NCBI RefSeq assembly: GCF_036365525.1 | Contig: NC_090404.1 | Coordinates: forward strand, 10,044,001 to 10,108,000 | Source of the DNA: Heterodontus francisci | Lineage: Eukaryota | Direction of reading: 5' to 3' | Length of the DNA: 64,000 bases | The notes under the pieces: model-generated | The model's input: the letters and a program-made list of their open reading frames with translations, nothing else | Databases searched by the model: none | What the model was told of the DNA's origin: nothing | Shown: positions 45,176-64,000 of the stretch, one piece after another | Position numbering within the stretch: the first letter of the stretch is position 1 | Layout of the letters: every line of letters begins with the position of its first letter | Position numbers and translations under genes: made by a program

Positions 45176-46302
45176 ACTCAATGCACAGTAATAGACCGCG
45201 GTGTCAGACAGCCGCAGTTCCGTGATGATCAATCAGTACAACTTGTCTGACTGCTGGACTGTATCAGAAAACCGGTTCTGAGCGAAATCCGCCTTAAATT
45301 CAGCACCGCCGCTCGTTTGCCTCCGGACTGCAAACTCGAGCTGTCTGCCTGGGTATTGGCGGTACCAGAATAAGTAATAACCATCGCCAGTATAGGTGCT
45401 GGTTAAAGTGACATCTGATCCCACTGTCAGTGTGAGCGAGGACTCCCGCTGAGTAACAGAATCTCCATCGTTCAGATCTGGAACACACGGTTAAAAAAAC
45501 AGGAAATCACCGATTAAGACTTCAACTCAACCGAACTGAAAATTCACAGTTAATGTTTCATAAAATTAAATAGAATTTGAGCACAGAAAAGGTCATTCGG
45601 CCCAACTGAAACATGCCAGGGTTCACATCTCCCCAGAAGCATCCTCCCCTCCCCCCGTCCACCGCCCACGCCCCCCCCCCCACCCCCCCGCCCCACCCCC
45701 GTCATCTCATGCTATTAGCAGATCCTTCCATCCCTTTCTCCCTCATCTGTTTATCCAGCTTCCATTTAAATGCATCTATACTATTCACCTCAACCCCTCC
45801 TTGTGGTAGCAAGTTCCAAATTCTCGCCACTCTCTGGGTAAAGAGGTTTCTTCCGAATTCCCTATTCGATCTTTTTGTGACTTTTATGTGTATGGCCTAT
45901 AGACTTGGAATTCTCCACAAGTGGAAACGTCATCACCACGTCTACCCTAACGAAATCCTGTAAAATTTTAAAGACCTCTATCCATCTTCAGTCTTCTCTT
46001 TACTAGAGAAAGGGGCCTCGGTGTGTACAACGGTTTCTAATAGAATATCTCGCAATTCTGGTATTATGCTTGTAATTCACTTTTGCATTTTCATCTGGGT
46101 CCCTATATCTTGTTGTAATATGGAGGCCAGAACTGCTCACAATAACCCAAGTATGGTGTAAACTAAGGTTCGATGCAAGTTTAAAATGAACTTCCCGTTT
46201 TTCAAATTTATATTCCTTCAGAAATTAATCCCTCTCAAAAATTCTAAATTTCTTACCGAGGAAGAATGTCGCCCAGACCACAGCGAGAACTGGGAGTCGC
46301 AT
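45176..46302 (-). pseudogene. TCR alpha/delta-type V pseudogene V1 (leader 46302-46257; V exon 45477-45176)
   Basis: Leader MRLPVLAVVWATFFL|gtaaga; V exon GDSVTQ..VTLTSTY..LFWYRQYPG..NRFS..LY*LIITELRLSDTAVYYCALS; Cys23>Ser and a TGA stop; CR1 fragment (about 45570-46200) in the intron. Confidence 0.9.
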
Positions 46303-47455: not shown

Positions 47456-47735
47456 GGTTTCGGAGCACAGTAATGCACGGTGCTGTCTGACAGCTCCGCC
47501 CCACAAACTCTCAACTGAACCGTGCTCTCCTCTGTGTTCAGCTCTGCTGTAAAACGGTGCTTGGCGAAGTCGGCTGAGAACGTGCCTTACTCTGTGAGAA
47601 GCAACACGTTTTCCTGAGCCCGATGGGGAACCTGCCGGCACCAGAATTGATCAGCGACAGTATCTGTTGCTGTAAAACTTCAGCGTCACCGTTTCTACTT
47701 CCTGCACATTCTCTTCTTTTCGCTCCCACTCTATT
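47456..47735 (-). pseudogene. TCR alpha/delta-type V pseudogene V2 (decayed)
   Basis: VQEVETVTLK/frameshift/DQFWCRQVP..*GTFSADFAKHRFTAELNTEESTVQLRVCGAELSDSTVHYCAPKP, followed by CACAGCT; no good nonamer or clear leader. Confidence 0.8.
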
Positions 47736-48519: not shown

Positions 48520-48558
48520 TGTTTTTGTACGAGGCCCCCTCTGGTTCCTGTCACTGTG
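48520..48558 (-). promoter_or_regulatory. Canonical 23-RSS of V3
   Basis: CACAGTG + ACAGGAACCAGAGGGGGCCTCGT (23 nt) + ACAAAAACA. Confidence 0.95.
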
Positions 48559-49073
48559 TCTCTCAGCCCGCAGTAATACATCGCGCTGTCAGACAGCCGC
48601 AGGTCGCTGATGGTGAAATTCCCCTCACTTTTCGAAGTGTTGAGAGATGCAGAAAATCGATCCTCCACGCCCTCTGCTCTGAAAACCTCTCCGTATTTAG
48701 GAATGTAGATGAGGAATGTGGGGGCTTTATCCCGGTCCTGGCGGTACAGTTGTAAGGAATAGGAAGTTACAGTGGTTGAATAGTTGTACTTAATTGTCAC
48801 CGAGTCTCCTTCAAACTTCATCGCTATAACCGGCCTCTGTAAGACCGAGTCTGCACCACTAACACCTGCAGAAATTAGAAACACAGAACTTTAAGCTTTT
48901 ATTGTCACTTTATTCTAAGTAATATCATCAGGAGACGGAGCACATTGTAAATAGAGAGAAAGCGCAATTAAAATATCAATGACGTTTGCAAGAGGAAGAT
49001 TGTGTAACTTGTAAACTTTACCAGTTAAGAGAGCTGCAGCTGTGAGGAATGAATACAAAGTAGCAAGCAACAT
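48559..49073 (-). CDS. TCR alpha/delta-type V segment V3, open frame but non-canonical (leader 49073-49022; V exon 48865-48559)
   Basis: Leader MLLATLYSFLTAAALLT|gtaaag; acceptor ctgcag|; GVSGADSVLQ..VTIKYNY..LQLYRQ..DRFSASL..FTISDLRLSDSAMYYCGLRD; no stops; Cys23>Tyr and Trp41>Leu. Confidence 0.85.
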
Positions 49074-49685: not shown

Positions 49686-50125
49686 CGGCTCAGCGCACAG
49701 TGATACAGGGCAGGATCAGAGAGAAAAAACCCTGGAGACTTTTAAAGAGCAGTTTTCTTGCCTTGGTCCAAGACAGCAGAGAAACGACGCAGAAAATCTG
49801 GAGACTTATTCCCGGTTTCCCTTGCCGTATCTCTTCAGTAAATATCTTTGAGCTTTCCCAGGATACGGGATACACCAGTAGAGGTAGGGAAAGCGCTCTG
49901 ATGTGCAGTAACTGCGGTTCAGTATTATGATCTGTCCTTCTTGAACCGTTAATTCAGGCGGCTCCTGGGACACTGAGTCTTTGCCATTCGTTCGTGTAAC
50001 ATAAACACAAGAATTTGTCAAAATTTTAGGAGTAAATATAACCCATGGAACACACACTGACAATTTAACAGAGGCTCACAGAGCAGCACGACCATTATTA
50101 TCAGTAAGGAACATGGGGAGCACAT
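49686..50125 (-). pseudogene. TCR alpha/delta-type V pseudogene V4 (leader 50125-50080; V exon about 49993-49686)
   Basis: Leader MCSPCSLLIIMVVLL|gtgagc; acceptor AG>AC; GKDSVSQEP..ILNRSY..YLYWC..PGKAQRYLL, frameshifts, ..DPALYHCALSR; heptamer CACACTG at 49679-49685 with a decayed nonamer. Confidence 0.85.
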
Positions 50126-62895: not shown

Positions 62896-63505
62896 GCATG
62901 TATAATGTAAATCGTACAACTGCAGCCATTCACACTGGAAATAGATACACTTTACTAATGTCCCGCATTTAGTTGCATAAATTAATTTTGAAAAATCATA
63001 TTATCAGGGATATTTTATTGGTATAGATTAATGGGATGGATAGCGAGAGACAGAGCAAATAGCAATGATTTTTGACCCTGATAACATCATTTAATCCCAG
63101 GCGTTGGCATCCTCCGTGTAGTGTTGAGGAAATAGAGGGGTTTAATTTTCAGTACACAACTATTTGCTATTGAACACGTTCTCAACTGCAACATCTCCAT
63201 TTATTACCAAGTAGCATGTTGCACTGAAACCATACAGTCAAATAACTATACCTGGATACAGATAAAAAGTTCACATTTAATAATAACCTGGTGTAATGAC
63301 ATGACTCCATTCTGTTGGTGATGTGGAAGATGGGACGTGGATCCAGTCACCGCCTCTATCAGGGAATCAATAGGCGGCGCCTGTAACCTCGCCCCCTTCT
63401 GCCGGGTATTTAAATGCCGGTCACTGGGACCGCAAGACAACAGTCCGGGAGCGGGTTTGCTCAGTGAGTTCTTGCCAGAACCATTTCCCCCGAATTACCA
63501 GAAGG

Positions 63506-63551
63506 ATGAGGTCGGCGATTTCTCTCAGTCTGTTACTGGTTTTCTTATCCA
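63506..63551 (+). CDS. Immunoglobulin heavy-chain (IgM VH-type) leader exon
   Basis: ATG AGG TCG GCG ATT TCT CTC AGT CTG TTA CTG GTT TTC TTA TCC A|GTGAGT = MRSAISLSLLLVFLS; 46 nt, phase 1; matches recalled shark VH leaders; TATTTAAAT at 63407-63415. Confidence 0.75.
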
Positions 63552-63569
63552 GTGAGTAGTTTTTATTAT

Positions 63570-64000
63570 ATAAAAACAAGAAATGCTGGAATCACTCAGC
63601 AGGTCTGGCAGCATCTGTGGAAAGAGAAGCAGAGTTAACGTTTCGGGTCAGTGACCCTTCTTCGGAACTGACAAATATTAGAAGAGATAACAAAGGAGAA
63701 GGTGTAGATTGGACCAGACCACATAGCTGACCAAAAGGTCACGGAGCAAAGGCAAACAATATGTTAATGGTGTGTTGAAAGACAAAGAATTACTACAGAT
63801 TAGGTGTAAATACACAGAATATTGAACAGCAGCAAGTGCAAACCTGAAAAAAAACAGTGGGTAAGCAAACTGAACAAACTAAGATGAAATGAAATAAATG
63901 CAAAAAAAAGATTGTAAAAAATGTAAAAAAGAATGTAAAAACAAGGAAGAAAAAATAACTAAAAATGAAAGTAAAATGGGGGGCTGTCATGCTCTGAAAT
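63570..64000 (-). mobile_element. Penelope-like element 3' end (pLTR) in the leader-V intron
   Basis: Reverse complement begins atttcagagcatgacagcccccc, matching the end of the ORF at about 58022; continues past the window edge. Confidence 0.85.
63633..63669 (-). ncRNA. Minimal hammerhead ribozyme motif (variant core)
   Basis: AGUU-CCGAAGA-A-GGGUC(ACU)GACCC-GAAAC-GUU-AACU. Confidence 0.65.

Follow-up and report, generated by a model that had tools for sequence, protein, structure and literature searches.

A VDD-joined IgM minicluster among the TCR alpha/delta-type V segments of Heterodontus francisci

Promoter and leader at the window edge

The stretch analysed here, called the window, comprises 64,000 nucleotides of Heterodontus francisci (contig NC_090404.1, hereafter C34, positions 10,044,001 to 10,108,000 of the forward strand). 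At its right-hand end lie a promoter and a leader exon, followed by an intron that runs out of the window. The features are given below in window positions.

63293..63302 (+), upstream promoter element GTAATGACAT; its position is conserved among IgM clusters, its CRE-like spelling is private to the focal copy
63407..63415 (+), TATA box TATTTAAAT, 99 bp 5' of the ATG; seen in all 10 loci displayed
63506..63551 (+), IgM VH leader exon of 46 nt, with the ATG at 63506 and a phase-1 donor GTGAGT at 63552
63552..64000 (+), leader intron, 666 nt in total, 217 bases of it beyond the window end
63568..64000 (-), 5'-truncated end of a Penelope-like retroelement in antisense, 529 bp, 96 of them beyond the window end

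The coding sequence of the leader exon is MRSAISLSLLLVFLS plus one nucleotide. The initial annotation, made from the window alone, had described a 46-nt leader with a GTGAGT donor and a TATA box about 100 bp upstream, and all three were confirmed at 63506, 63552 and 63407. It had also pointed to a CRE-like element further upstream. Such an element is present at 63293, and the same position is occupied in 16 of the 24 cluster promoter rows; however, the TGAC spelling is found in one of these 16 rows, that of the focal copy, so the element is no conserved CRE and the label is weak. The absence of an octamer holds as well. None lies within 400 bp upstream of the leader, where the best match has two mismatches, and none was found in the 24 cluster promoters read out. 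As an 8-mer is expected by chance to be missing from a few hundred bases, this result simply agrees with the available part of PMC2435157, where shark IgH genes are stated to lack the octamer.

When the promoter and leader were used as a query (40 of 45 candidates scored), at least 40 matches of 86-100% identity were obtained, every one of them on C34, where they occupy both strands from 3.59 to 13.6 Mb. This pattern is not due to chance.

Once the insert is subtracted, the leader intron measures about 125 nt, like that of the sister clusters. The insert is bounded by 12-bp target-site duplications, the first copy of which starts at 63556, and it belongs to a dispersed repeat, the best 40 of 2627 candidates being 91-100% identical and spread over many contigs. 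Longer copies of the repeat hold a reverse transcriptase (RT) reading frame with the same terminal peptide as the insert; the Pfam RVT_1 match is weak (E 1.4e-4, under the cut-off), and Pfam GIY-YIG has no match in these copies. The intronic element of the initial annotation stands as an antisense, dispersed insert, and its naming after a putative Penelope/GIY-YIG endonuclease motif is tentative.

The IgM minicluster beyond the window end

The promoter and leader at the window edge open a whole IgM minicluster, which extends over the next 16 kb. Its further parts, all on the plus strand, are as follows.

C34:10108218-10108537 (+), VH exon with a joined V-D1-D2 end, open, starting 218 bp beyond the window end
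ending at C34:10108565 (+), 12-RSS behind the VH
C34:10108892-10108977 (+), 23-RSS and JH, 393 bp behind the V
C34:10117138-10120573 (+), Cmu1-4 and secretory tail, open and in phase
about C34:10123213-10123340 (+), TM exon, open and in phase

The VH is 72-73% identical to the IgM chains of Triakis and Chiloscyllium; thus, the exon following the leader is VH-like, and the suspected IgH minicluster could be read through JH, Cmu1-4 and the TM exon. The gene combines a split leader, an IgM-type VH, a single JH with a 23-RSS and its own Cmu1-4, secretory tail and TM exon. From leader to TM exon, every exon is open, the splice sites are in phase and the CAC starts of both heptamers are intact.

Against a sister cluster 138 kb away, pN is lower than pS in all five exons (V 0.105/0.184; Cmu2 0.025/0.141); these are crude pairwise counts, and such values do not indicate which branch is under selection. 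In the tree, the focal V branch is longer than those of its sisters (0.18 vs 0.06 and 0.01), and the D2 RSS has one nonamer mismatch more than in most sisters. Contigs from sequencing runs cover the region from the promoter to the middle of the VH, and the leader-VH joints in the 15 rows displayed, out of 28, carry sister-type letters. These contigs come from four runs with at most one sample and two studies, the RNA nature of X5/X6 is a guess, and they are unable to show absence.

Joining of V, D1 and D2

In split sister clusters, the order is V(23)-(12)D1(22)-(12)D2(12)-(23)J across about 1.27 kb. The focal V instead continues into 18 extra bases, eight of which match the D1 of a sister, and then into a D2-type 12-RSS. 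The 23-RSS of the V is lost and there is no free D between V and J, which gives a VDD-J structure. The possibility that the junction hides a cryptic 23-RSS was rejected, since 27 bp, and not 22-23, separate the nonamer from the heptamer-like 7-mer upstream. Joined VD-J and VDD clusters and rearrangement within the cluster are described in the accessible portions of PMC2193156, PMC4279169 and PMC5192425, which ascribe the joined shark genes to RAG activity in germ cells.

The D2-J part was searched for with 40 of 82 candidates scored, and it was continuous with a V at 9 of 39 scored places. The cluster read-out gave 24 rows from 31 loci (seven loci gave no row); since joined loci were chosen on purpose, the 10 joined rows among the 24 are not a frequency. 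These 10 rows have seven distinct junctions, thus joining occurred several times. One junction is common to four near-identical copies, so that joint, at least, is older than the duplication. Of the nine further joined Vs read out, six (L064-L068 and L023) contain stop codons. As the focal VH clusters in the tree with two split clusters (97/86), the joined state is likely the derived one.

Several neighbours on C34 were also recorded. Adjoining the window upstream, another joined IgM cluster, with a VH from a different family, is seen on the minus strand (L023-L025, 10019000-10038540); its VH is 46% identical to the focal VH, its V has a stop, and its Cmu1 and Cmu4 likely have frame breaks. 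The VH most closely related to the focal one lies 138 kb off, in an intact-looking split V-D1-D2-J-Cmu-TM cluster (L005, L030-L028; 9970202-9988300). Paralogous minus-strand TCR Vs (10003360 and 10136971) lie 14-15 kb behind the TM exons of this cluster and of the focal one, which suggests a duplication that took in the IgM cluster and the TCR V together. A truncated minus-strand IgM remnant (L014-L015, 10145900-10152400) retains a D2/J region along with part of Cmu1 and Cmu2, with no V and no Cmu3-4 in the stretch fetched. At L074 (7905000-7907700) and L080 (7377900-7380400), the V 23-RSS is kept and the V-J distance is shortened; these are likely V-DDJ and V-DD-J joining states. L065-L068 (7.0-7.3 Mb) are one joined pseudogene in four tandem copies.

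TCR-type V segments and the interleaved array

Four V-like segments occupy the minus strand of the window at 45.2-50.0 kb, about 13 kb from the focal leader, and one of them is intact.

45176..45466 (-), TCR alpha/delta-type V pseudogene with an FR3 stop and the heptamer lost
47458..47715 (-), decayed TCR-type V with several stops and no nonamer
48520..49073 (-), intact TCR alpha/delta-type V: leader 49022-49073, V exon, and a perfect heptamer with a 23-bp spacer at 48558
49688..49982 (-), decayed TCR-type V with stops, a frameshift and no nonamer

Two of these were placed in a tree, where they fall into the TCR V group (99/99) with the sawshark TCR chain P0136, several branches being long. 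The TCR type proposed for the segments is borne out by this grouping, by the 23-RSS of the 48.5 kb V and by the presence of TCR C genes on C34. When the 48.5 kb V was compared with PDB entries, the best 60 of 217 hits were antibody fragments that left it unclassified, and its class was taken from the tree instead; a protein search for its longer relatives returned no matches, a weak blank.

With the intact V as query (150 of 850 candidates scored), 124 of the 150 fall on C34, where they occupy both strands from 3.68 to 13.88 Mb; they were not classified singly, and 16 of the 124 are open and 75-85% identical to the query. Thus, from 3.6 to 13.9 Mb, at least 40 IgM promoters are interleaved with more than 100 TCR-V-like matches in both orientations. 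The opposite orientation of IgH and TCR Vs that had been highlighted is a local feature, whereas across the array both kinds of gene stand on both strands.

Behind the focal TM exon, a short, weak V-like open frame was seen on the minus strand (L012, C34:10127018-10127269), and no RSS was found for it. A C1-set search (150 of 626 candidates scored) showed further C1 exons on C34 (1.48-2.01, 15.4 and 27.8-43.6 Mb) and large tandem arrays on C8 (115-125 Mb), C23 (54.6-55.9 Mb) and C46 (15.0-16.9 Mb). The C46 array has a period of roughly 16 kb and V matches; it is likely, as are those of C8 and C23, to be a set of light-chain clusters.

D, J and C genes of TCR alpha/delta

The C part of a sawshark TCR chain matched C34 at 3.30 Mb (-) and 3.46 Mb (+), with a TM match alone at 3.18 Mb (-). 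In the stretches read (3.176-3.216, 3.24-3.25, 3.256-3.266 and 3.276-3.616 Mb), a C-alpha is accompanied by a J array and a C-delta1 by J segments and a single D, and D-J-C-delta2 is inverted; the assignment to delta or alpha rests on the presence of a D. Each D-delta carries a 12-RSS on its 5' side and a 23-RSS on its 3' side; the J segments identified in these stretches all have a 12-RSS.

These genes lie on the same contig as the focal gene, at a distance of 6.66-6.92 Mb. C-delta and C-alpha are thus linked to it but, at 6.7-6.9 Mb, not adjacent. The worry that the 45-50 kb Vs might be orphons is likewise half right, for they are far (6.6-6.9 Mb) from any such C gene but stand within a continuous V array. 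The sawshark-C search found no other TCR alpha/delta C locus besides a TM match on the small contig C1869 (L041, 27423-27521), which scores equal to the C-alpha of C34 and is likely an unplaced duplicate. A genome-wide search with Pfam DUF1968 (TCR alpha C) gave nothing meaningful (best E 0.27).

The two TCR-delta cassettes are divergent and stand head to head (C34:3301755-3461947; L049-L061, L090-L094). The first consists of Ig-like Vs (-), D, J array and C-delta1 (-), and the second of Ig-like Vs (+), D, J array and C-delta2 (+). As the C-delta1 and C-delta2 domains are 57% identical and the C and TM stretches are open in both, the pair is not a duplicated haplotype. A literature search found nothing specific on duplicated shark C-delta, which does not imply that it is unpublished, and a protein search for relatives of C-delta2 gave no matches, another weak blank.

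Between the two D-delta (C34:3363750-3426111; L090-L093, L055-L057), about 15 stand-alone IgH-like Vs or fragments are present, most with a 23-RSS and all without Cmu. Of seven open ones placed in the tree, six form a clade of their own (99/95), while that at 3376847 is of a divergent type. The stand-alone Vs (3.36-3.43 Mb) are 41-55% identical to the focal VH and may be regarded as TAILV-like candidates. The segments positioned to feed TCR-delta are these stand-alone 23-RSS Ig-like Vs directly before both D-delta.

Recombination signals and Ig-TCR joining

In V(D)J recombination, a 12-RSS joins a 23-RSS. The initial annotation had proposed that the focal V could be joined to TCR segments by inversion. 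The geometry towards the minus-strand D-delta1 or J-alpha is indeed inversional, but the joint would be 12-to-12; by the 12/23 rule, the 12-RSS of the focal V and the 12-RSS of the D-delta 5' side and of the J segments identified give no productive TCR chain, by inversion or otherwise. In the TCR locus, 23-RSS partners would be V ends and D-delta 3' ends only, and the resulting joints would be head-to-head or dead ends. The VDD end pairs productively with a JH 23-RSS only, most simply its own. Conversely, a neighbouring TCR V is barred from the focal cluster, since its spacer and that of the JH are both of the 23 type and the cluster has no remaining free D. The mismatch makes an ordinary antibody likely and a hybrid not. 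The split sisters with a 23-RSS VH are still compatible with D-delta. Rearrangements of IgM/IgW V to TCR-delta are reported for sharks in the portions of PMC12227049 and PMC5931798 at hand.

Interpretation

The focal feature is probably the promoter and leader of a complete germline VDD-fused IgM minicluster, which likely serves as an ordinary IgM gene and would be barred from TCR D-delta and J by the 12/23 rule. RAG action in germ cells may have fused V, D1 and D2 after duplication from a split sister. In B cells, a single RAG cut-and-join of the VDD to its own JH would then likely yield an ordinary IgM chain, with splicing presumably removing the antisense insert and CDR3 diversity restricted to one junction.

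The same structure might belong to a silent cluster in early decay, which is open but neither rearranged nor expressed. We consider this rather unlikely, though it fits a number of observations: the insert sits 16 nt behind the splice donor, the D2 nonamer has drifted, the V branch is longer, most of the other joined Vs have stops, and joined heavy-chain transcripts went undetected in the horn shark in the literature available. Against it speak the intact exons, splice sites and heptamer starts and the lower pN in all exons, along with early-life expression reported for joined genes in the literature at hand.

A broader reading is quite improbable. It holds that the IgM clusters lie inside a working TCR alpha/delta V array, so that T cells would reach Vs 3-10 Mb off across dozens of IgM clusters and split 23-RSS VHs would supply, in cis and through deletional or inversional joining, the V of IgM-V/TCR-delta chains; germline VDD joining would be retained because the V thereby acquires a 12-RSS and the cluster is confined to B cells.

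It is very doubtful that the focal VH itself undergoes inversional joining to TCR D-delta or J and gives rise to an expressed Ig-TCR hybrid. The shark rearrangements cited above (PMC12227049, PMC5931798, as far as available) give the idea some ground, as does the presence of TCR alpha/delta C genes on the same contig, with C-delta1 and C-alpha on the opposite strand. The spacer lengths contradict it, the segments are 6.7 Mb apart, and a separate clade of stand-alone 23-RSS Ig-like Vs adjoins both D-delta.

That the VDD joint arose somatically in a lymphocyte and entered the assembly from there is scarcely credible, because nine other clusters are joined, several of them with stops, four tandem copies with one junction need germline joining before duplication, and a bulk assembly rarely fixes one lymphocyte clone. 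All the same, the available text of PMC2435157 describes VDD-J as an intermediate commonly formed by somatic rearrangement in the B cells and thymocytes of sharks.

Read as a germline-joined IgM gene, the feature has little significance as it stands, being another partly joined IgM cluster within a published layout. It may serve as an internal control for Ig-TCR hybrids, for split sisters would be expected on C-delta transcripts and joined ones not. C34 also permits a full RSS-level map of the shark TCR alpha/delta-IgM complex, and the head-to-head TCR-delta cassettes (3.30-3.46 Mb) are more interesting than the focal gene and merit a study of their own.

Comparison with known systems

Joined IgM clusters have long been known, and the focal gene is a real, ordinary further one. 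Like the joined elasmobranch miniclusters (VD-J and VDD-J; horn shark and skate) in the accessible parts of PMC2193156, PMC4279169 and PMC5192425, it has one V, one J, Cmu1-4 and TM, a V and D fused in the genome, split V-D1-D2-J neighbours and no octamer. As far as these sources go, there is no difference of kind, the Penelope-like insert in the leader intron being a peculiarity of the focal copy. It differs from the nurse shark IgM1gj, in what is available on that gene, as it is not fully VDJ-joined and has kept Cmu2. With the TAILV or Ig-TCR-delta Vs, named in the available text of PMC12227049, it has in common a V domain of IgH type located within the TCR alpha/delta region. However, it carries no 23-RSS and does not stand alone; it has a 12-RSS and a J and Cmu of its own, and it groups with IgM VHs (68-87% identity to its own family).

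The layout closely resembles the elasmobranch antigen-receptor complex (AgRC) of Flajnik et al. 2025 (PMC12227049), in the portions available, where IgM clusters in both orientations are likewise interleaved with TCR alpha/delta Vs over megabases. In Table S1 of that paper, which gives NCBI gene models without RSS types, IgM genes on great white shark chr27 (8.6-17.1 Mb) are interleaved with TCR Vs, both orientations occurring; an interleaved layout is also tabulated for the stingray, with Ig-like Vs before C-delta and C-alpha, and the catshark has a joined IgM. Since the interleaving is already in the text and Table S1 seen, the locus is no new evidence of Ig-TCR mixing, and the direct genomic evidence hoped for in the initial annotation is not forthcoming, the hybrid also failing for the focal V. 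By the same available portions of PMC12227049, the gene order (TCR V/IgM, Ig-like delta Vs, C-delta, C-alpha) is that of stingray and catshark, while the H. francisci array, with at least 40 clusters over 10 Mb, is larger than the AgRC examples and has two divergent C-delta cassettes where Table S1 gives one each for stingray and catshark.
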